The translations under genes and the position numbers were made by a program. From IMG/VR virus record IMGVR_UViG_2695420687_000012: a DNA stretch of 11,134 nt; one strand, 5' to 3'. Numbering within the stretch: position 1 is the stretch's first letter; every line of letters starts with the position of its first letter. Below, in pieces: positions 1 to 11,134 of this stretch. The notes beneath the pieces are model-generated. The model saw only the letters and a program-made list of their open reading frames with translations. It was not told the origin of the DNA and ran no database searches. The stretch is from a virus. Lineage: Duplodnaviria > Heunggongvirae > Uroviricota > Caudoviricetes.

Positions 1-858
1 GTAGACGCTCAGGCGACGAAAAATTGAAGCTTCCTGCNGNNGNNCGCCATACTCCAGCGATTCCGTGTTTTTGATAAGCGGGCGTACTGCTGGATGCGTT
101 TTAAAGCGAGCCAGCAGCTCGCTTGCCGGAACACGACTTTGCGTAAGGGAGGAGAGCGGGCAAACAATCCCTAACGAAAGCGTTTGTTGATTAGTATAAA
201 GAAATGCGCCGCCGGGTAAGTCATCACAGATTCCGCCGCTGAACAGCAACGCTGCGCCTTCGTTATTCTCCAGATGAAAACGTTCTTCAATAGAGGATGT
301 TTCCAGCGCCAGCACTTCTTTGATCCCCAACGCCATCGCTTCGCCAGCAGGGCGAGTCACTAACCCGTGTCGTTCAGCCAGGATGCTATTAGCACCTTCC
401 GCCAGCACCACATAACGGGCGCGGAGAATATCGTCACCACAAATGACACCACAGATTCTGCCGTTTTCTTCATACAGCGTATCCAGTGTCGCGCCAGGGA
501 TACACTCGACACCTTCTTTTTCGGCTTCGGCAACCAGCCACGGATCGAAACGGGCGCGCAAGACGCTCCAGGATTCACCGCCAGGCTGTAAGCTGGAAAA
601 CGTTGTTGCGCCATCGGGTGTTAACAGGGAAAGGCTTTCGTGAGTGATACGTCGCTCAAGAGGTGCAGTCAGGTGATATTGGGGGAGGAGTTCCGCGAGC
701 GCATGGGTATATAAACGCCCGCCGGAAAGGTTTTTGCTGCCGGGGATTTCAGCACGTTCCAGTAACAGAACGGATAAACCCGCTCGCGCGCAGCGCAACG
801 CGCAGGCGGTGCCCGCAATTCCGGCACCGATAATAATAATGTCGCAGTCATCTTCCAT
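1..858 (-). CDS. ygcN: FAD-dependent oxidoreductase of the FixC / ETF-quinone oxidoreductase family (YgcN-like); 3' end runs off the window start
   Basis: Minus-strand translation from the ATG at 858-856 reads MEDDCDIIIIGAGIAGTACALRCARAGLSVLLLERAEIPGSKNLSGGRLYTH..., with an N-terminal GxGxxG dinucleotide-binding motif, and stays open to position 1. Absent from the ORF track because no stop lies in the window; the track ORFs 360..614 and 669..896 are other frames. Sits directly downstream of queD as in E. coli (recalled gene order). N's at 39-46 fall inside it. Confidence 0.65.
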   Translation of the reverse strand, partial: MEDDCDIIIIGAGIAGTACALRCARAGLSVLLLERAEIPGSKNLSGGRLYTHALAELLPQYHLTAPLERRITHESLSLLTPDGATTFSSLQPGGESWSVLRARFDPWLVAEAEKEGVECIPGATLDTLYEENGRICGVICGDDILRARYVVLAEGANSILAERHGLVTRPAGEAMALGIKEVLALETSSIEERFHLENNEGAALLFSGGICDDLPGGAFLYTNQQTLSLGIVCPLSSLTQSRVPASELLARFKTHPAVRPLIKNTESLEYGXXXQEASIFRRLSVY

Positions 859-935
859 GTCATGCCCCAGAGATCCAGAGCGCAACACCCTAACATAGCG
901 TTACTTAAGGGAAATTGACCGCCGACACACTCTTA

Positions 936-1301
936 TCATTCGCCGCGATAGATGCAGCCTGCGGTGCAGGTTTCTTTCACCATTACCGCGCTTAACAGCG
1001 GCACAACGGGTTTTACCTGATCCCAAATCCATTTTGCTAAAACTTCGCTGGTCGGGTTTTCCAGGCCAGGGATCTCATTGAGATAATGATGATCGAGGCG
1101 ATCGTAGGTCGGTTTAAACGCCGCTTTCAGTTCAGCGAAATCGATGATCCAGCCCGTATGCGGATCGACTTCCCCTGTAATTTCCAGGCGCACCATAAAA
1201 GAGTGCCCGTGCAGGCGACCACATTTATGCCCTTGCGGGACGTGTGGCAAGCGGTGAGCGGCTTCGAAGGTGAAATCTTTAAATAACGTGGTGGACATCA
1301 T
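936..1301 (-). CDS. queD: 6-carboxy-5,6,7,8-tetrahydropterin synthase QueD (queuosine biosynthesis)
   Basis: The track ORF 936..1385 contains [121 protein letters not shown], near-identical to recalled E. coli QueD (121 aa). The conserved start is the internal MM at 1301; the 28 extra upstream codons in the track are probably not translated. Confidence 0.9.
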
Positions 1302-1682
1302 AATTTCTCTACAGGACGACAAAACCGCCGTAGAGTACCGGAAAGCCTGTTTTTTCGCATTATCTAAAACGACTTTGTTGCGCAAAATGGCCTGTTTATC
1401 TTAATGGTTGGCGATATTCTTTTAATTATCATGCTGTTAATAAATCCATTTTGTTGTTAGCGACTATTGCTAAAACAGGTTAGTCGATTTGGTTATTAGT
1501 TATCGCTATCCCGTCTTTAATCCACACCGTTCGCCCCGTTAACCTTACCTTCTCTTCTGTTTTATGGGCGCTGACAGGGCCGATAAACAGCTTTGCTTAC
1601 TGGAACATAACGACGTATAAGTATAGCTGATATTTATTAAGTTAATATTAAGCAATGAAATTTAATCTATAGGATTATTGGC

Positions 1683-1709
1683 AAAAAAAACCCGGCAATA
1701 TATGCCGGG
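1683..1709 (-). terminator. Rho-independent terminator downstream of gnd
   Basis: cccggca(1691-1697) / tgccggg(1703-1709) stem with a 5-nt loop; the A-run at 1683-1690 is a U-run on the minus-strand transcript, 3' of the gnd stop. Confidence 0.7.
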
Positions 1710-1736
1710 CCTCAATTTATTGCTGATTAAATTAGA

Positions 1737-2096
1737 TTAATCCAGCCATTCAGTATGGAACACACCTTCTTTATCAATGCGCTTATAAGTATGCGCACCG
1801 AAATAGTCACGCTGAGCCTGGATCAGGTTCGCAGGCAGCACCGCGGCACGGTAGCTATCGTAATAAGCAACCGCCGCAGAGAAGGTTGGAACTGGGATAC
1901 CGTTTTGCACTGCATAAGCGACGACATCACGCAGTGCCTGCTGGTAGTCATCGGCGATTTTCTTGAAATACGGAGCTAACAGCAGGTTAGCGATTTTTGG
2001 ATTTTCGGCATAGGCATCGGTGATTTTCTGCAGGAACTGCGCACGGATGATGCAGCCAGCACGGAAAATCTTCGCGATTTCACCGTAGTTCAGATC
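1737..2096 (-). CDS. gnd: 6-phosphogluconate dehydrogenase, C-terminal 119 codons only (5' part absent)
   Basis: Minus-strand translation [119 protein letters not shown] followed by a stop matches the recalled Gnd C-terminus. Similarity is lost upstream of about 2097, and an in-frame stop lies at 2115-2117. Confidence 0.85.
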
Positions 2097-2265
2097 CCCG
2101 CTGGTCGAAAGCCGCTACCTGTATGATCCGCTGGGCCGCCGGACGGGAAAACGGGTGTGGCGGCGGGAGCGTGCATCTGCCGCGACCAGCTTAAATAATC
2201 CTGCGCCAACATTGGCAAGTCGAGTAACCACTCTCCGGGATAATCGACAATCTCCAGATATNGCN

Positions 2266-2915
2266 TCTGGGTGATCATCTGATTTGTGGTAAAAAGCTGA
2301 GATCCATTGACGGCATCGGTACTGTCTGCCGCTATTCGACCATTTGCCACGTTAGTGATTTTGCTGGCGGTATCGGTGCCATGCGCTGCGCTGAATGCGC
2401 CTGCGCTGGCATCCCAGAGCAGAGAATCATCCAGTGATGCGTCAATTGCACTCAGTGCGTCGCCGATGTTGCTGTAGTCGGTATTGGCGATACTGTAAGT
2501 TGGCGCATTGATGGTGCCGTCAGCATTCATCGTCGAGCCGCCGCCCAGCGCATCAACTACAGAATTGCTGACGCCATAGAGTTGGCTGCCGTTCACCGCA
2601 TCGGTACTGGTTGCGCTAAGTGCGCCTGCTGCGACGTTGGTGATCTTGCTGGTTACTCCAGCGCGGCTGGCGCTGTATGACTTGCTGGAGTCATCCCACA
2701 TCAGCGCATCACCCAGTGAAGTGCCCACAGAAGCGTTAATTGCAGTTAGCGCATCTCCCAGGTTGTCGTAGTCAGTGCCGCCAATGGTATAGGTCGGCGC
2801 ACTAAACATGCCGTCGGCCCCAACGGTTGAACCACCGCCTAAAGTGTCAGCAATTGCGCTGCTGAAATCATAGAGCTGTGAGCCGTTAATTGCATCGGTG
2901 CTGGCGGCGGTTAGA
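2266..2915 (-). CDS. Internal fragment of a trimeric autotransporter adhesin (YadA-like repeat region), bounded by N-runs on both sides
   Basis: Minus-strand frame is open across the fragment and shows two tandem repeats of about 105 aa, each with TDY.N.GDAL.AI.AS ... SKITNVA.G ... [10 protein letters not shown], as in YadA/Hia-type adhesin head-neck units. It is part of track ORF 2090..2809 but continues upstream to the N's at 2916-2924. Confidence 0.7.
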
Positions 2916-2926
2916 NCNNNGNNGGT

Positions 2927-3367
2927 ATGTCAATACATCTCGCTATTGCCGATGGCGGCAACCAGGGATATTTCGATTACACATCACAGCATAACGTCAT
3001 TATGTGGAGATGGCTGATCGCAACAGTATTCATGCTGGAAATGAGAGAGGAAAACGGCACTGTCAGCATCATTGATGATACTGGCAATCCTTCCGAAGTG
3101 GCTGTTTATTCCAACGGCATCGTCGCCATGCCGCTGTATCCAGTAGCAGAGCGCCTCGCTATGGCAAACAACATTGAGGGCGCGATGATAGAACGTTTTG
3201 GCATCGAGTCTGGCACAGAACGCGCCATCATTTTCTACAGAGCCATGATGGATGTGGAACAAGGAGCACTGACTCCATTTGGTCGTGAAACGCTTGCTGA
3301 ACTTCACAACAGCTTTATAGCTGAACTGAATGAAAACGGCATGCCAGCGGAACCAGTGACGCACTGA
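2927..3367 (+). CDS. Hypothetical protein, first gene of the element operon (5' end uncertain)
   Basis: Track ORF of 146 aa with a protein-like composition. The frame is open upstream into the N-run at 2916-2924, so the ATG at 2927 may not be the true start. Confidence 0.5.
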   Translation: MSIHLAIADGGNQGYFDYTSQHNVIMWRWLIATVFMLEMREENGTVSIIDDTGNPSEVAVYSNGIVAMPLYPVAERLAMANNIEGAMIERFGIESGTERAIIFYRAMMDVEQGALTPFGRETLAELHNSFIAELNENGMPAEPVTH

Positions 3368-3377
3368 GGATGGATCC

Positions 3378-3719
3378 ATGATTACTAAAAATTTCCGACT
3401 GAATGCGCTGGCAAATAAGTATGCGTCGGCACTGTATAACCACATTACCTCCACCAGCGGCTGGGACTATTTCATGGTTGATGCGGACGGCGAGGCCGTC
3501 CGTGTGGAAATCGTCAATGGAGTAAAAGGCGTTCGCAGCCTGATCGATAGCTACACACTGGCAGCCATGAAAGTGTTCTACCCGCAGTGGGAAACCGTGG
3601 GGATAGAGCTTCTTGATCGTTGCGTCACTAAGGACGGATTGACTGACGTCGGGCGTGAGATATGGCAAAGCATGGTTAATGACATGGGCGCAACTGTAGC
3701 GGGAGGTTCTCATGCGTGA
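3378..3719 (+). CDS. Hypothetical protein (113 aa)
   Basis: Track ORF; GAGGA Shine-Dalgarno at 3365-3369 about 9 nt before the ATG; begins 10 nt after the upstream stop and overlaps the next ORF by 8 nt. No motif I recognise. Confidence 0.6.
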   Translation: MITKNFRLNALANKYASALYNHITSTSGWDYFMVDADGEAVRVEIVNGVKGVRSLIDSYTLAAMKVFYPQWETVGIELLDRCVTKDGLTDVGREIWQSMVNDMGATVAGGSHA

Positions 3720-4083
3720 AAATGCAGAAATGGCGCTTAGCTCCGCAATCGGAGAGCAGGTGGCAAAGATTGCTGGCGCTGTGTGGATTCATAACCTTCA
3801 TTCTACTGGTGAAGAGAAAATGGCAATTCAGACGCCAGAGGGACGCACCATTACTACATCTCTGAAGGCGTCAGATGTTTGTGATCTGATTTGCGCATTC
3901 ATGTACCCAGCAATGAGGACTGTCCACGGCGATAAGTGGAAACTTGCGACAACCGCTGAATTTGATATGTGGCTAAACAATGATGGCATGCTGACTGATT
4001 ACGGAATAACCAAGTGGCAGATGCTGGTTAGCCATATCGCAAACGCTATAGACCACGTGGGGTACGGTGATGCGAAACATTGA
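3712..4083 (+). CDS. Hypothetical protein (123 aa)
   Basis: Track ORF; GGGAGG Shine-Dalgarno at about 3699-3704; its 3' end overlaps the primase start (4067/4070), suggesting translational coupling. Confidence 0.6.
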   Translation: MRENAEMALSSAIGEQVAKIAGAVWIHNLHSTGEEKMAIQTPEGRTITTSLKASDVCDLICAFMYPAMRTVHGDKWKLATTAEFDMWLNNDGMLTDYGITKWQMLVSHIANAIDHVGYGDAKH

Positions 4084-6826
4084 TCTTATCCGTCAGGTTA
4101 TCAGTGCGTCTGAAAACAACTGGCCTCATGTGCTGGGCTGCCTGAACATAAATGTCCCTGACTCTCCGCGCCGTCATGCTCCCTGCCCTGCATGTGGGGG
4201 CAAAGATCGATTCCGGTTCGATGACAACGGGCGCGGTAGCTTCATCTGTAATCAGTGCGGCGCTGGTGATGGACTGGATTTAATTAAACGCGTAAATAAC
4301 TGCGACACAACAGAGGCGGCGCTTCTTGCCGCTGATGTTCTGGGTATTGATTACCGGACAACGGAAACACCAGAAGCCACCAGCCAGAAACGGGAACAAC
4401 TGGAAACCGAGCGCCAGCGACGCGAACAGGAGCGCCTGAAAAGGGCAGAGAAGGACGAACAACAAAGACGGGATACGTTTTCCCGTCAGTTTGATGACAT
4501 GCGCAGAAAGGCTGTAAACGGCAAATCTGATTATCTGGTTGCGAAAGGGGTAGGTGATTTTACATTCCCCGTGTTGCCCGATGGATCTCTGTTGCTGGCG
4601 CTGGTGGATAAATCCGGCGCAGTAACAGCAGCACAGACTATTACCTCACATGGTGAAAAAAGACTCCTGACAGGTTCAGCAAAGCGAGGGGCATATCACG
4701 CCATAAACGCACCAGAAACAACACAGAGCATCTTAATCGCAGAAGGGCTGGCAACGGCATTATCTGCCCATTTAATTCGTCCAGAGGCGCTGACAGTGGC
4801 GGCGATTGATGCCGGGAACCTGTTATATGTCGCCCAGGTACTGCGGGATAAATTTCCTTCAGCACAAATCATCATTGCTGCGGATAACGACCACAGCGAA
4901 GGAAGACAAAACACGGGGAGAATAGCAGCAGAAAAAGCAGCTTTATCTGTTTCTGGATGGGTGGCATTACCCCCGACAGATCACAAAGCAGACTGGAATG
5001 ATTACCACCAAAAACACGGCATTAAATGCGCCACAGAAGCGTTCAATAAGTCAATGTACCAACCACAGGGTAATGGCGTGAAACAGGAGCCACAGACCAT
5101 TGAGGGAAGCGATTTTAAGGTTATGGATACCGACCCACTGAAACCAAGAATAGAAAGCCGCGAGGATGGTATTTATTGGGTATCTCCGAGAGCTGACAGC
5201 CAGAGTGGAGAAATCATCAATAACGAAAGCTGGTTATGTTCTCCGTTAAGCGTTATCGGTACTGGCAGAGACGATAAAGACCAGTATCTCATTCTTCGCT
5301 GGCTGTCGTTTGGTTCTGAAACGCCGACAACCGCTGCCATTCCACTGGCTGATATTGGTGAACGTGAAGGATGGCGCACACTTAAAGCTGGTGGGGTAAA
5401 TGTCACGACCAAAAGCAGCCTCAGAGCAATACTGGCAGACTGGCTACAACGCAGTGGCTCTCGTGAATTGTGGCGTGTTGCTCATGCCACTGGCTGGCAA
5501 TGCGGAGCGTACATCATGCCTGATGGGGAAATCATCGGAACACCTGAAAATCCTGTGCTGTTCAGCGGGAGAAGCTCAGCCGCAGCCGGATATACCGTCT
5601 CAGGGAGCGCGAAAAGCTGGCGTGATAACGTGGCGCGTCTGGCCTTTGGTAACTATTCAATGATGACCGGGATCGGCGCAGCACTGGCAGCGCCATTGAT
5701 TGGGCTGGTGGGCGCTGACGGGTTCGGCATTCATTTCTATGAGCAGTCGAGCGCAGGTAAGACCACCACGGCAAACGTGGCGAGCAGCTTATACGGCAAC
5801 CCTGATTTACTGCGGCTGACGTGGTACGGAACCGCGCTGGGGCTGGCAAATGAAGCTGCCGCCCACAATGACGGACTAATGCCGCTTGATGAAGTTGGTC
5901 AGGGCGCTGATCCTGTCAGTGTGTCACAGTCTGCCTATGCGTTATTTAACGGTGTAGGGAAACTGCAAGGCGCTAAAGATGGTGGAAACCGGGATCTAAA
6001 ACGCTGGCGTACAGTGGCAATCAGCACCGGAGAAATGGATTTAGAAACATTTATCGCTACTTCCGGGCGAAAAACCAAAGCCGGGCAACTGGTGCGACTG
6101 CTGAATATTCCGTTGAGTAAAGCAGTACGCTTTCACGATTACCAGAACGGAAAACAGCACGCAGACGCACTGAAAGACGCTTACCAGCATCACCACGGCG
6201 CAGCCGGGCGTGAGTGGATTAAATGGCTGGCAGACCACCAGCAACAGGCAATTAAAACTGTTCGTGACTGCGAAAGCAGATGGAGAAGTCTGATCCCATC
6301 CGATTATGGTGAGCAGGTTCACCGTGTAGCCGCGCGATTTGCCATTCTGGAGGCCGCATTGCTGTTAGGCGAGGTTGTAACAGGCTGGGATGCTCAGACA
6401 TGCCGTGATGCGATACAGCACAGCTATAACGCATGGTTGCGCGAGTTCGGCACAGGTAACAAAGAACATCAGCAGATTATTGAACAAACGGAGGCATTTC
6501 TTAATGCCTATGGGCTTAGCCGTTTTGCACCATTTCCATACAGCCCGGCAGATTTGCCCATCAAAGATTTAGCCGGATACCGTCAGCGTGGAGAACATGA
6601 CGAAAGCCCAATGATTTTCTACACATTCCCGGCCACATTTGAAAAGGAGATCGCATGTGGTTTCAACGCAAAACAGTTTGCTGAAGTGTTGAAAAAAGCC
6701 GGGATGCTAACCCCACCAAACAGCGGTCGTGGATACCAAAGAAAATCACCACGTATTCAGGGACGACAAATAAACGTTTATGTACTCAATTACCAGCCAG
6801 GAGATTACAACTCATCTGAAGAATGA
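4067..6826 (+). CDS. Replication primase/helicase-like protein: N-terminal zinc ribbon, P4-type TOPRIM primase, C-terminal P-loop NTPase (DUF927-like)
   Basis: 919-aa track ORF (GTG at 4067 or ATG at 4070). CPACGG...CNQCG zinc ribbon at about 4186-4261; a highly charged helix (ERQRREQERLKRAEKDEQQRRD); IAEGLATA at about 4739-4759, matching the EGYATA-type motif of P4 alpha primase; acidic AADNDHSEG at about 4876-4902; Walker A-like SSAGKTT at about 5747-5767; Walker B-like LMPLDEV at about 5875-5895. Confidence 0.85.
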   Translation: MMRNIDLIRQVISASENNWPHVLGCLNINVPDSPRRHAPCPACGGKDRFRFDDNGRGSFICNQCGAGDGLDLIKRVNNCDTTEAALLAADVLGIDYRTTETPEATSQKREQLETERQRREQERLKRAEKDEQQRRDTFSRQFDDMRRKAVNGKSDYLVAKGVGDFTFPVLPDGSLLLALVDKSGAVTAAQTITSHGEKRLLTGSAKRGAYHAINAPETTQSILIAEGLATALSAHLIRPEALTVAAIDAGNLLYVAQVLRDKFPSAQIIIAADNDHSEGRQNTGRIAAEKAALSVSGWVALPPTDHKADWNDYHQKHGIKCATEAFNKSMYQPQGNGVKQEPQTIEGSDFKVMDTDPLKPRIESREDGIYWVSPRADSQSGEIINNESWLCSPLSVIGTGRDDKDQYLILRWLSFGSETPTTAAIPLADIGEREGWRTLKAGGVNVTTKSSLRAILADWLQRSGSRELWRVAHATGWQCGAYIMPDGEIIGTPENPVLFSGRSSAAAGYTVSGSAKSWRDNVARLAFGNYSMMTGIGAALAAPLIGLVGADGFGIHFYEQSSAGKTTTANVASSLYGNPDLLRLTWYGTALGLANEAAAHNDGLMPLDEVGQGADPVSVSQSAYALFNGVGKLQGAKDGGNRDLKRWRTVAISTGEMDLETFIATSGRKTKAGQLVRLLNIPLSKAVRFHDYQNGKQHADALKDAYQHHHGAAGREWIKWLADHQQQAIKTVRDCESRWRSLIPSDYGEQVHRVAARFAILEAALLLGEVVTGWDAQTCRDAIQHSYNAWLREFGTGNKEHQQIIEQTEAFLNAYGLSRFAPFPYSPADLPIKDLAGYRQRGEHDESPMIFYTFPATFEKEIACGFNAKQFAEVLKKAGMLTPPNSGRGYQRKSPRIQGRQINVYVLNYQPGDYNSSEE

Positions 6827-6851
6827 GCTTCTTCATGTGCGTAGAAAAGGC

Positions 6852-6962
6852 GTTGGTTCAGTTGGTTCAGTTGGTTCAATTTGTAAAGAGTATTGTTTTA
6901 TAAGGATTTTATTCTTTTTATTGAACCAACACTGAACCAACAACACGGTATTTTGAACCAAC
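6852..6962. repeat. Iteron array, putative origin of replication: 3 tandem GTTGGTTCA, AT-rich spacer, 3 inverted TGAACCAAC
   Basis: Perfect 9-mers at 6852-6860, 6861-6869 and 6870-6878; an AT-rich stretch at 6879-6921; reverse-complement copies at 6922-6930, 6933-6941 and 6954-6962 (11 and 21 bp apart, roughly helical phasing). Lies immediately 3' of the primase gene. Confidence 0.65.
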
Positions 6963-7012
6963 ACAATGTGACTGAATTGATGCGCACAACACCTGGCTGG
7001 CATCAGAGAGTG

Positions 7013-7088
7013 TTTTACGAGACTTTCGTAAAATCCTGTGTACAAGGGCGTGACGTTTTTGAAAGTGAGCACTACGAAATTTTCGTAG
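7013..7088. promoter_or_regulatory. Two related palindromes sharing a TTTCGTA / TACGAAA half-site; possible operators
   Basis: TTTTACGA-gactt-TCGTAAAA at 7013-7033 and CTACGAAA-T-TTTCGTAG at 7072-7088, about 55 bp apart, between the iterons and the terminator. Confidence 0.3.
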
Positions 7089-7282
7089 TTCAGAAAACAG
7101 CCCCTGAGAAGTTGTTATGCCTGTTCAGCAAACCATCCGCATAGCTGATCGCGAATCAAATTACCAATGGAGCCAGAAGCAAGGGCAGAACTGAAAAGCG
7201 CCTGCCGTGAAGAGTAATGCGACACCATAAATATAGTTTTTAGAGTCCATAAAAAACCTGTCAAAACCTGACACACAGAACG

Positions 7283-7315
7283 ATGCCACCAGCTACTGAG
7301 CGGTGGCATTTTTTT
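7283..7315 (+). terminator. Rho-independent terminator
   Basis: atgccacc(7283-7290) / ggtggcat(7302-7309) stem, 11-nt loop, then a T-run at 7309-7315. Confidence 0.6.
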
Positions 7316-7348
7316 GTGCTATCTGTTTCATATTTTGCAATTACTATG

Positions 7349-7397
7349 ATGAATATTGCGATTTGTGAAACTATAATAACTGTTGTTTTATACAGTT
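7349..7397 (+). promoter_or_regulatory. Promoter of the small-gene cassette with an overlapping LexA-type (SOS) box
   Basis: Perfect -10 TATAAT at 7372-7377 with a weak -35 upstream. Directly after it, aaCTGTtgttttatACAGtt (7378-7397) has the CTGT-N8-ACAG geometry and AT-rich centre of the E. coli LexA consensus TACTGT(AT)4ACAGTA, covering the likely transcription start. Shine-Dalgarno AAGGGGG at 7400-7406. Confidence 0.5.
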
Positions 7398-7410
7398 ATA
7401 AGGGGGCGTT

Positions 7411-7572
7411 ATGGCTATTTCAGTAAAGCCGGTATTGATAAGTGAGAAGCAAATGGAAGCGATAAAGAAAATTCAGGAAGAGCAGCGTAAAAAATCAGGA
7501 ATTGGAGTAGCGCCAACTCTGCATGAAATTGCACGAGGGTTAATAGATAAGGCGCTGGCAGGCTGTATGTGA
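7411..7572 (+). CDS. Small hypothetical protein (53 aa), possibly a small DNA-binding regulator
   Basis: Below the track's 60-aa cutoff; hand translation gives MAISVKPVLISEKQMEAIKKIQEEQRKKSGIGVAPTLHEIARGLIDKALAGCM. Strong Shine-Dalgarno; first gene after the LexA-box promoter. The strand-plus-two-helix pattern is suggestive of a ribbon-helix-helix fold but unverified. Confidence 0.5.
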   Translation: MAISVKPVLISEKQMEAIKKIQEEQRKKSGIGVAPTLHEIARGLIDKALAGCM

Positions 7573-7588
7573 AAATGGATGGCATCGC

Positions 7589-8050
7589 ATGGAACTAAAA
7601 TTTATTGATAACCCTGTGCGATTACAGGCCTTTCTTAACGAGCCTGGCAATACCGAAAATATTGTTGAGCCGGGGCACACGTACTACATCAAGCCTGATG
7701 CGGTATATCTCGGTATCTACGAAGGATTGGTGCTGGCTGGCGTTCATGAAGTGCGTAACTTCTGGCATAGCATTGTTGAATGCCATGCGGTGTACGACCC
7801 CGGATTCCGTGGTGAATATGCACTACAAGGGCATCGATTATTCTGCAAATGGCTTCTCGAAAACTCACCATTCCTTAACAGCATCACCATGGTTCCTGAC
7901 ACAACGAAATACGGACGGGCAATTATCCGTTTGCTTGGCGCTACCCGTGTTGGTCACCTTGATGATGCTTATATCAGATGTGGTAAACCCGTCGGCGTAA
8001 CGCTTTATCAGTTAACTCGGCAACAATATAAGGAATTCAGCGAATGTTAA
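7589..8050 (+). CDS. Hypothetical protein (153 aa), no family recognised
   Basis: Track ORF MELKFIDNPVRLQAFLNEPGNTENIVEPGHTYYIKPDAVYLGIYEGLVLAGVHEVRNFWHSIVECHAVYDPGFRGEYALQGHRLFCKWLLENSPFLNSITMVPDTTKYGRAIIRLLGATRVGHLDDAYIRCGKPVGVTLYQLTRQQYKEFSEC; globular composition with several conserved-looking Cys/His. The overlapping track ORF 7605..8000 is a low-complexity alternative frame. Confidence 0.6.
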   Translation: MELKFIDNPVRLQAFLNEPGNTENIVEPGHTYYIKPDAVYLGIYEGLVLAGVHEVRNFWHSIVECHAVYDPGFRGEYALQGHRLFCKWLLENSPFLNSITMVPDTTKYGRAIIRLLGATRVGHLDDAYIRCGKPVGVTLYQLTRQQYKEFSEC

Positions 8051-8197
8051 TTACCCATATAGCTCATAAATATCTCAATCGTGCCGTATACGAAAAAGGC
8101 GGTGATGGTGGTGCCTCTAAAGCTCAGGCGAAGGCCCAGCAGCAGGCAATTGATTTGCAGCGCGAGCAGTGGAATACGGTGATGAATAATCTCAAGC
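8044..8197 (+). CDS. Hypothetical protein, 5' part only (cut at the N junction 8198-8199)
   Basis: The start overlaps the upstream stop (ATGTTAA). MLITHIAHKYLNRAVYEKGGDGGASKAQAKAQQQAIDLQREQWNTVMNNLK: a Gly-rich segment followed by an Ala/Gln-rich helix. The track ORF 8044..8325 continues across the N's in the wrong frame into fadM and REP sequence. Confidence 0.45.
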
Positions 8198-8199
8198 NN

Positions 8200-8263
8200 T
8201 ATGCAGAAAGCTTTAGCTCTGGAAGGGGAATTGCGCGAAAAGCTGGAACAGATGGTGAACTAA
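8200..8263 (+). CDS. fadM: Long-chain acyl-CoA thioesterase FadM, last about 20 codons only
   Basis: Frame MQKALALEGELREKLEQMVN followed by a stop (8261-8263) matches the recalled FadM C-terminus (...TQKALALEGELREKLEQMVK); convergent with queC as in E. coli. Confidence 0.6.
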
Positions 8264-8269
8264 AGGGAC

Positions 8270-8360
8270 TATGGCGCCGGATGCAGTGCTGTGGCGGCTT
8301 ATCCGGCTTACAAGCAAAATCGTAGGCCGAATAAGGTATTCGCGCCGTATCCGGCGACAC
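8270..8360. repeat. REP / BIME element (two inverted REP units)
   Basis: gcgccggatgcagtgctgtggcggcttatccggcttac and the inverted copy gtaggccgaataaggtattcgcgccgtatccggcgac, typical E. coli repetitive extragenic palindromes between convergent genes. Confidence 0.7.
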
Positions 8361-8369
8361 TCGAGATAA

Positions 8370-9065
8370 TTACTTCAATCCGGTCTTCTGTTTCATCGCC
8401 GCCATCACCGCCGGTTTATCGGCCAGATAATGATTCAACCCGTTGGCGCGTAAGTTACACGCTGCACAATGGCCGCAACCGTCGCCTTTTATGCCGTTGT
8501 AGCAGGTCAGGGTTTCGCTACGCACTAAATCCAGCTTGCCGTAATAATCCGCCAGCGCCCAGGTTTCTGCTTTATCAATCCACATCAGCGGCGTTTCAAA
8601 ACGAATATCTTTCGCCATACCCAGACTGACGGCGTGGTTCAACGCTTTCACGAATTCATCGCGGCAATCCGGGTAGCCGGAGAAATCTGTTTCGCAGACA
8701 CCGGTAATCACAGCTTCTGCCTTCACCTGATACGCATAAATTGCTGCCAGAGTCAGGAATAAAATATTGCGCCCCGGCACAAAGGTATTAGGAATTCCAT
8801 CGGCGTCGGGTTCATAATCGGGCACCGGAATACTGTCACGCGTCAGGCTGCTGACAGCCAGTTGGTTAAGCAGCGTCACATCCAGCACTTTATGCGCGCG
8901 CGCGCCCAGTTTCAGCGCCAGCTCGCGAGCGACGTCTATCTCTGCGCGATGGCGCTGACCGTAATCAAACGTCACGCAATGGACTTCATCGTATTGCTGT
9001 AATGCCTGCACCAGACATGTGGTGGAATCCTGGCCTCCACTGAACACAACGACAGCACGTTTCAT
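8370..9065 (-). CDS. queC: 7-cyano-7-deazaguanine synthase QueC
   Basis: 231-aa track [23 protein letters not shown]...[35 protein letters not shown], near-identical to recalled E. coli QueC, including the SGGxDS PP-loop and C-terminal Cys cluster. Confidence 0.9.
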
Positions 9066-9129
9066 AAATCATCCTGCTAAATCAATAAAAGCGTTATGGT
9101 AACGCTTGCGGGTAACCCCGACCAGCGCT

Positions 9130-9990
9130 TCATTGCGACGGCGCGGGAAGCCAGGCTTCGGTAAATTCAAACCAGCCACGTGGTGTCAGGCGGACACCGT
9201 TCACACCGGGCGGCGCGCTGATACGGTAATGATAGTTAAACAGCGGCGTCAGCGTGGCGTCGTCCATTAGCTGGTTAAACACCGTTTTCAGGGCGTTATG
9301 CCGGTTTTCCTCATCAGGCATAATTTGCACGGCATCCAGCGTCGATTGCAGATGCGTATATGCGCTGGCAGTGAAAACATGCGGCCACAGAGGATCACAA
9401 CGCAGCCATTGTTCAAGGGTATATTCTGGTGCCTCGCCAATCAGCCTGTCGCCCATCATCAAATCTGCCTGTGCCAGTGAAGCGGCATCGTCCCAGTTTT
9501 TCGCGTTATGAAAAATGATTTTTAGTTCACAACCTTCTGCCGCCAGTGTTGCTCGTAACTGTTCCGCCATGGCATGAAGTTCCACTGGCAGGTGATAAAC
9601 CAGTGTCAATGTTTCTGGGCGTTTGACTTCTACTGGCACTTCCCACTGTGGAATAGTCCAGCCTGGCAGCAATGCATGACTGGCGGTGATCAGATTTTCT
9701 CCGACTTCTAATGTTTGTAATAGACCGGATTGATGAATGATGGCGATCACTTTTCGCGCCTGCCAGAGAGTAAGTCTGGCGCTTTTACGTAATGTTAAAT
9801 AGCAAAACCCCAAACTAATACCGCTACTGACCGGGCTGACCATCGGTAAATCTTCAGGTTTGCCGATGGTGATTTGTACCGGATGCCGACAACTGGTACC
9901 CAAATCTTTTTCAAAAAGCGGAGGGGTTATCCAGTACTCAACCGCTTTTAGCAGCGGGTGACGTAAATGGTAATAATCATGGCTTTCCAG
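9130..9990 (-). CDS. ybaE: C-terminal about 286 codons of a YbaE / SgrR-C-like solute-binding-domain protein (5' part absent)
   Basis: C-terminal part of track ORF 9130..10509 (LESHDYYHLRHP...LTPRGWFEFTEAWLPAPSQ). The tail resembles the recalled SgrR C-terminus, and the gene sits upstream of queC as ybaE does in E. coli. Confidence 0.6.
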   Translation of the reverse strand: MESHDYYHLRHPLLKAVEYWITPPLFEKDLGTSCRHPVQITIGKPEDLPMVSPVSSGISLGFCYLTLRKSARLTLWQARKVIAIIHQSGLLQTLEVGENLITASHALLPGWTIPQWEVPVEVKRPETLTLVYHLPVELHAMAEQLRATLAAEGCELKIIFHNAKNWDDAASLAQADLMMGDRLIGEAPEYTLEQWLRCDPLWPHVFTASAYTHLQSTLDAVQIMPDEENRHNALKTVFNQLMDDATLTPLFNYHYRISAPPGVNGVRLTPRGWFEFTEAWLPAPSQ

Positions 9991-10002
9991 NCGGCNNNAN
10001 TN

Positions 10003-10548
<546 letters not shown>

Positions 10549-10846
10549 TTACATCTTGATAACTTAGATGAAAATATTATTCAACATAGAGTTTTTTATG
10601 GTGAGCTGGCTCACACCTCCCTGACGCTGCGGGAATATAGCGTCTTTAGTATCTCCTGCTAAACGCGCTTTTTATCCAGCAGAAAATTCCACTCTGGAGC
10701 GGATTATTGGCACTCCGATAATAAGAAATCGCAAAGAAAAAAATTCTCCGGCGACGCGGTTTTTAACCCGTGTTCTATGCTTGAAATGAGGTCCTCCACA
10801 CAGAGAGTACCGACAACAATGAGGTGCGCGTATGNCNNCGNTGNNN

Positions 10847-11134
10847 CTGGCTTCATAGGTTGGGCGGTTGCCGCTGGTGGTGGTGGCGCGACGGATTGCC
10901 ATAAATGACTGCGCTATGTCGGTGTGTCCGGCGTCAAACTCCAGACGACGGTGACTGATAATGTCGTAGGCCTTGAGTACCAGGGCGTTTTTAACGTTGG
11001 GGTTGTAGACAAACTCCCGGACGGCTGGAAAAAACGCTTTCACGTTCTCGTAAACCCCGTGGCCGACACCTGTCGAGTCGATGCCGATGTAGGTTACGTT
11101 GTACTGCTCGGTCAGNGTNNACCGAGAAAATGGC
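10847..11134 (-). CDS. Phage protein fragment with an RNase H-like IGID motif, possibly a terminase large-subunit nuclease domain; open to the window end
   Basis: Minus-strand frame ...TEQYNVTYIGIDSTGVGHGVYENVKAFFPAVREFVYNPNVKNALVLKAYDIISHRRLEFDAGHTDIAQSFMAIRRATTTSGNRPTYEA, cut at the N-run 10835-10846. The track ORF 10672..11043 is this frame read across the junction. Confidence 0.35.

Follow-up and report, generated by a model that had tools for sequence, protein, structure and literature searches.

We found that positions 1386-2924 of the DNA analysed here are very probably not a genetic locus but the left part of a chimeric contig, made up of at least 10 fragments that lie far apart in the genome and were put together in silico. 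The window, meaning the whole 11,134-nt stretch under analysis, is the entire contig CDRK01000191.1 of assembly GCA_000936005.1, to which it is byte-identical, ambiguous bases (N) included. We compared its pieces one by one with loci from other public assemblies and with 5,426 complete E. coli genomes. Local BLAST against the reference loci resolved the contig into a patchwork of at least 10 pieces in 11 kb (Table 1), with five pieces and five joins within the 1.5 kb of 1386-2924. The initial annotation had read this region as a mosaic of four unrelated pieces; the mosaic stands and all of the pieces named there were found, but the count has to be corrected. Its judgement that four such pieces do not make a plausible natural arrangement is supported by the closed genomes, by distances in E. 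coli K-12, by the continuity from queD to cysJ, and by joins that are not reproduced.

Gene-internal cuts were found at all pieces, affecting ygcN, gnd, RHS, ycjX, the adhesin, a 200-aa gene of the mobile element, a gp7-like gene, fadM, ybaE, dadA, ycgB, and a terminase. The piece assignments in 1386-2924 lie far beyond chance by their BLAST/HMM E-values, with the exception of the 24-residue RHS peptide.

Table 1. Pieces of contig CDRK01000191.1 and the joins between them, in window coordinates
Feature	Position	Strand	Remarks
End scrap, 37 nt	1-37		
N-laced join, left end of piece 1	38-44		
Piece 1: ygcN 3' part (to 858), queD (936-1301), queD-cysJ intergenic region (1302-1615)	45-1615	-	
Join: queD-cysJ intergenic region / gnd downstream region	1615/1616		no N; both native references projected onto the window
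Piece 2: last 120 codons of gnd (1737-2098) and 121 nt downstream	1616-2098	-	
Join: gnd/RHS	2098		no N
Piece 3: RHS repeat core fragment, 75 nt	2099-2173	+	
Join: RHS/ycjX	2173/2174		no N
Piece 4: internal ycjX fragment, 88 nt	2174-2261	-	
Join: ycjX/adhesin	2262-2265		N at 2262 and 2265 (tNgcNt)
Piece 5: internal trimeric autotransporter adhesin stalk fragment, 216 codons	2266-2915	-	
Join: adhesin/element	2916-2923		N at 2916, 2918-2920, and 2922-2923 (NcNNNgNN)
Piece 6: internal slice of an integrative satellite-like element	2924-8208	+	99.9% identical to E. coli TUM10008
Join: element/fadM 3' end	8198-8208		NN at 8198-8199; 6 nt in common (GCAGAA)
Piece 7: fadM 3' end, queC, ybaE 3' part	8203-9993	-	99.2-99.6% identical to E. 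albertii (L012-L016), 87% to E. coli
N-laced join: ybaE/dadA	9987-10002		
Piece 8: dadA 5' part, dadA-ycgB intergenic region, first codons of ycgB	9987-10842	-	90% identical to E. coli dadA/ycgB
N-laced join: ycgB/terminase fragment	10835-10846		
Piece 9: internal fragment of a phage terminase large subunit (nuclease domain)	10847-11115	-	assigned only by Pfam Terminase_6C, E 6e-21
N-laced stretch: terminase fragment / 14-nt scrap	11116-11120		
End scrap, 14 nt	11121-11134		

The queD flank and the gnd piece

Over 1574 nt, the first piece shares 99.1-99.6% identity with closed E. albertii chromosomes (L006-L011), compared with 93.3% for E. coli. Within it, 1386-1615 is the genuine queD-cysJ intergenic region, which ends 2 nt short of the cysJ ATG. 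Past this point, native genomes continue into cysJ, reading ...ACGACGCATGACGACACAG, and the window reads ...ACGACGTATAAGTATAG. The queD upstream region leads directly into cysJ in all six of the six closed E. albertii chromosomes compared, exactly where the window switches to gnd. A break in synteny had been suspected somewhere within 1386-1736, with no ambiguous bases marking it; this is borne out, and the break can now be fixed at 1615/1616.

The gnd piece matches the 6PGD C-terminal domain (Pfam PF00393, E 1e-51). The terminator that had been noted behind the gnd tail was confirmed by direct folding as a strong hairpin with a U-tract on the minus strand, at about 1681-1713 (dG -20.7 kcal/mol, z -3.6); a consensus terminator scan missed it, though it is visible by folding. 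The native neighbours of gnd are ugd and the O-antigen genes. In K-12, gnd (2,099,862-2,101,268) lies beside ugd, wzzB, and wbbL, and queD (from 2,892,214) lies beside cysJIH, 791 kb from gnd, so that the map given in the initial annotation, with queD by cysJ and gnd far off in the O-antigen region, proved accurate. The piece matches E. coli SM107 and 23CRST032 at 100% identity; with most E. coli the identity is about 93%, and an allele of at least 99% identity is present in only two of the 5,426 complete E. coli genomes. Such rarity in E. coli also fits an origin in E. albertii. As a separate observation, the rare allele suggests that E. albertii and a few E. coli have exchanged DNA in connection with the O-antigen region.

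RHS, ycjX, and adhesin fragments

The stretch at 2101-2261 had been described as a single unassigned fragment on the minus strand. The peptide quoted for it is real and belongs to YcjX, but the stretch is not one piece: it comprises most of a plus-strand RHS fragment, followed by a minus-strand ycjX fragment. The RHS fragment aligns over 76 nt with an E. coli RHS core-domain gene at 84% identity, and the assignment of its 24 codons comes entirely from the DNA match (E 2e-13 to 2e-17). The ycjX fragment is 88-92% identical to E. coli ycjX and matches Pfam DUF463/YcjX (PF04317, E 3e-13) at profile positions 109-137 of 443.

Rhs loci are known to carry orphan core and toxin fragments, and the window likewise contains a short RHS core fragment out of its usual context. 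In contrast to such loci, the window has no PxxxxDPxGL boundary, toxin tip, immunity gene, or nearby full-length rhs; it holds only 75 nt of core, placed between fragments of gnd and ycjX. Nothing outside 2099-2173 is RHS-like, and at 2174 the sequence switches to antisense ycjX.

The adhesin fragment gives three YadA_stalk matches (E 6e-29), corresponding to about two repeat units of 95-100 aa, and has internal direct repeats spaced 285-294 nt apart. Megablast found no match to it in E. coli, and a search in distant mode found E. coli EhaG/YadA-like genes at 68-72% identity. A relative in E. albertii was located by a protein-guided scan of species-representative genomes: the fragment is 90.8% identical to positions 1999-2640 of contig BBMY01000115 of E. 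albertii NBRC 107761, the closest relative among those genomes, and the match falls inside an ORF (618-4295) of at least 1225 aa. When 2266-2907 was compared with the E. albertii type strain, the half nearer 2266 was about 99% identical and the other half about 83%. This jump in divergence inside the stalk repeats fits the repeat shuffling or recombination expected in such adhesins.

The mobile element slice

The longest piece is an internal slice of a mobile element. It encodes three small ORFs, then a Zn-ribbon/Toprim/DUF927 primase (4070-6826; PF08273, PF13362, and PF06048), followed by iterons (6852-6964), a 53-aa ORF, DUF2824, and the start of a P22 gp7-like ejection protein. Both ends are truncated mid-gene, on the left in the 200-aa gene and on the right in the P22 gp7-like gene. 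In 10 of 10 long native contigs, the same interior is flanked by int-AlpA-AntA-DUF4222-Ash-... on the left and by gp7-gp20-gp16-PerC on the right, and native copies of the element adjoin yicC or proA. This integrative, satellite-like island is very widespread: its 918-aa primase is present without change in 5,418 collection blocks.

The slice matches the interior of the E. coli phage-satellite-like elements (int-AlpA-...-primase-..., beside yicC or proA) at 99.9% identity, including the primase and the iterons just downstream of it. It differs from them in the absence of the integrase, AlpA, and att sites that the native copies carry. Since the slice is cut within genes at both ends and has none of these three, it says nothing about insertion of the element at this place. 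Three contigs obtained independently from other samples (L022, L023, and the Logan contig L026) begin exactly at the equivalent of window position 2927, so the left edge of the piece is a recurrent assembly break.

The iteron array itself lies just downstream of the primase gene and consists of three direct copies of GTTGGTTCA(G/A)T with 9-nt spacing and, after a gap, three inverted copies (TGAACCAAC) facing the direct ones. This iteron-like array at 6852-6964 is likely the replication origin of the element.

A sister contig with different versions of the joins

The product of a truncated 146-aa ORF (2927-3367) matches exactly in CDRK01000191.1 and in a second deposited contig, CCBU01000087.1 of assembly GCA_000940615.1. 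This sister contig is 100% identical to window positions 1931-8208 (6.2 kb) except at three of the four joins that the two contigs share, and the order gnd-RHS-ycjX-adhesin-element is common to both. At the gnd/RHS join, the window reads ...CTTCGCGA-TTTCACCGTAGTTCAGATCC-CCGCTGG..., with 20 extra nucleotides that are genuine gnd, and the sister reads ...CTTCGCGA-CACGCGGATACAGCATGGTGAG-CCGCTGG..., with 22 extra nucleotides that are genuine RHS at the left end of that fragment. The RHS/ycjX join is identical in both. At the ycjX/adhesin join, the sister reads ATATANCTG--GGGTG and is 2 nt shorter than the window. At the adhesin/element join, the sister has GCCCCGGN where the window has ambiguous bases at 2916-2923, and native copies of the element read CCAGATGAA upstream of 2924; the sister's join is fully readable (GAGCCCCGGNGG), and its adhesin frame stays open up to the GGTATG of the element. 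Past 8208, the sister runs on natively through the gp7-like gene, whereas the window jumps to fadM.

An inherited DNA junction would be identical in both genomes. Here it exists in two versions, one with more of the first parent and the other with more of the second, which argues that the joins were made in software. Both parents must be represented in the reads by their longer sequences. Both assemblies are probably products of one faulty pipeline or of a single read set; searching the literature for their assembly and WGS accessions turned up no paper. Farther along, the sister has joins of its own, to truncated uxaA/uxaC and to metK, and ambiguous bases at its positions 10191-10368.

These two versions also bear on a possible origin at the bench, in which small DNA fragments were ligated to one another during library preparation and the resulting concatemers served the assembler as bridges. 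Two of the pieces are about read-sized (75 and 88 nt), the microhomology of 1-6 nt would suit such ligation, and a single library behind both assemblies would account for the shared order. However, one chimeric molecule should yield only one junction sequence, and the assemblies differ at three joins; chimeric library molecules are, moreover, low-copy and seldom win in the consensus. We therefore regard library concatemers as distinctly improbable.

Ambiguous bases and the sequence around the joins

All 31 ambiguous bases of the window fall into seven clusters, each no more than about 10 nt from a homology breakpoint. The two runs of N reported earlier, at 2262-2265 and 2916-2924, turn out not to be solid and consist of scattered N's. 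We asked whether N's stand at positions where the native continuations on either side disagree, in part with E. coli standing in for E. albertii, and saw only a trend (13 of 15 N's versus 6 of 10 letters; Fisher p = 0.18), although the 2916-2923 join fits the pattern well.

Microhomology at the joins is minimal, at 1-6 nt. No repeats border the joins beyond those internal to the adhesin, no tRNA and no transposase or integrase ORF were found in the window, and no insertion sequence (IS) lies at any join. The borders thus carry no mobile-element hallmarks of the kind seen in natural genomic islands, and no junction recurs in the independent closed genomes compared. We also considered two regularities in the pieces and rejected both. 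Piece ends seemed to follow gene boundaries, with one end at the cysJ ATG and the BLAST end of the dadA piece at the ycgB ATG, but the non-N letters carry ycgB on to about 10842. Nor are the pieces ordered along a reference chromosome, as their K-12 positions are non-monotonic across the contig.

None of the 5,426 complete E. coli genomes holds at least 80% of 1300-3000, or of the whole window, in one place, and a 45-mer across the gnd/RHS join found no match in species-representative genomes, IMG/VR, or JGI metagenomes. Aligning each segment separately to closed genomes had been proposed in the initial annotation; once done, it showed this arrangement to be absent and the natural adjacency to be different.

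These observations weigh on the idea of a real, rearranged junk locus in one E. albertii clone, where fragments of gnd, RHS, ycjX, and an adhesin would have been gathered by illegitimate recombination next to a decayed mobile element. That three of the joins (1615/1616, 2098, and 2173/2174) carry no N's is in keeping with such a locus, as is the recurrence of the piece order and of the RHS/ycjX join in two deposited assemblies. Yet two assemblies that agree elsewhere at 100% identity have different gnd/RHS and ycjX/adhesin joins, each assembly with extra genuine parental sequence, and no IS, integrase, att site, or tRNA marks any join. The arrangement is found in none of the 5,426 E. coli genomes, and the queD flank leads to cysJ in the six closed E. 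albertii chromosomes. In addition, no fewer than five other unrelated joins occur in the contig, and the sister diverges at 8208. A real locus is thus very improbable. The same low standing applies to a related version, in which the shared order gnd-RHS-ycjX-adhesin-element would be a chromosomal scar in one E. albertii clone, its short fragments of distant genes captured during repair beside a decaying mobile element and the differences between the joins being consensus noise; we consider this highly unlikely.

Source organism and native gene order

Judged by sequence identity, the source organism is Escherichia albertii, not E. coli. Identity of the core pieces reaches 99.1-99.6% with closed E. 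albertii genomes, against 87-93% with E. coli. Proteins identical to the QueD and QueC of the window are encoded by the closed chromosomes CP045690.1 (RM10705), CP126908 (2014EL-1348), CP099877, and CP099910, and these QueD/QueC-matching chromosomes are listed as Escherichia albertii (PMC10673567; PMC9861504). On the 4.6-Mb chromosome CP117580.1, exact QueD is encoded near 1.09 Mb and exact QueC near 3.33 Mb, roughly 2.25 Mb apart, compared with 7 kb in the window. Because the contig is a patchwork, the proximity of queD and queC in the window is spurious.

A mixed sample, for example of E. albertii and E. coli, whose shattered assembly graph led to short pieces being mis-scaffolded, is barely credible: identity to E. 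coli is indeed uneven along the contig (gnd 100% and the element 99.9% to some genomes, the core 87-93%), but against most E. coli gnd reaches only about 93%, matching the queD piece, and so fits E. albertii or an O-antigen-linked exchange, the element is a widespread mobile one (primase in 5,418 blocks), and no piece is demonstrably ordinary E. coli core. Contamination with E. coli as the main cause was likewise rejected, since the gnd allele is rare in that species.

A proposed origin of the false joins

What marks the joins as false is that their flanks are non-adjacent in closed genomes, that the join sequences differ between assemblies, with shifts of 2-22 nt, and that ambiguous bases are concentrated at the joins. 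In the in silico reading that we prefer, the fragments behave like short contigs, several of which end at repeat-prone sequence (RHS, the adhesin stalk repeats, and the multi-copy mobile element). An assembly, scaffolding, or contig-merging step may then have abutted these fragments without true overlap, and at these false joins, where reads would have given mixed or thin support, consensus calling would have left the scattered N's. The software step behind the joins and the reason for the piece order common to both assemblies are matters of inference.

Random misjoins in independent read sets would not normally be repeated. What speaks most against a purely random misassembly is that the two assemblies agree in piece order and in the RHS/ycjX join, and for this reason a small residual probability is kept for a chromosomal scar or for library concatemers.

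The contig otherwise resembles the false joins found in draft short-read bacterial assemblies, where flanks are distant in closed genomes, ORFs are cut in the middle, ambiguous bases are clustered, pieces end in repeat families, and the joins are not reproducible. It differs from them in an unusual density of joins, with at least 10 pieces in 11 kb, two of them of 75-88 nt, and in a piece order that is partly common to a second deposited assembly.

Consequences for database use

We attach no biological significance to the arrangement; its value lies in quality control and database hygiene. CDRK01000191.1 and CCBU01000087.1 contain many false joins, and the other contigs of both assemblies merit screening. 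Synteny, pangenome, and gene-neighbourhood analyses that draw on these assemblies would infer spurious adjacencies, such as that of queD and queC. Two fusion ORFs that span false joins were also observed on the minus strand of the window. One, at 2090-2809, encodes a 239-aa fusion of adhesin, YcjX, and antisense-RHS sequence, and the other, at 9130-10503, encodes a 457-459-aa fusion of the DadA N-terminus to the YbaE C-terminus. Both fusion products are artefactual, yet present in public protein collections.
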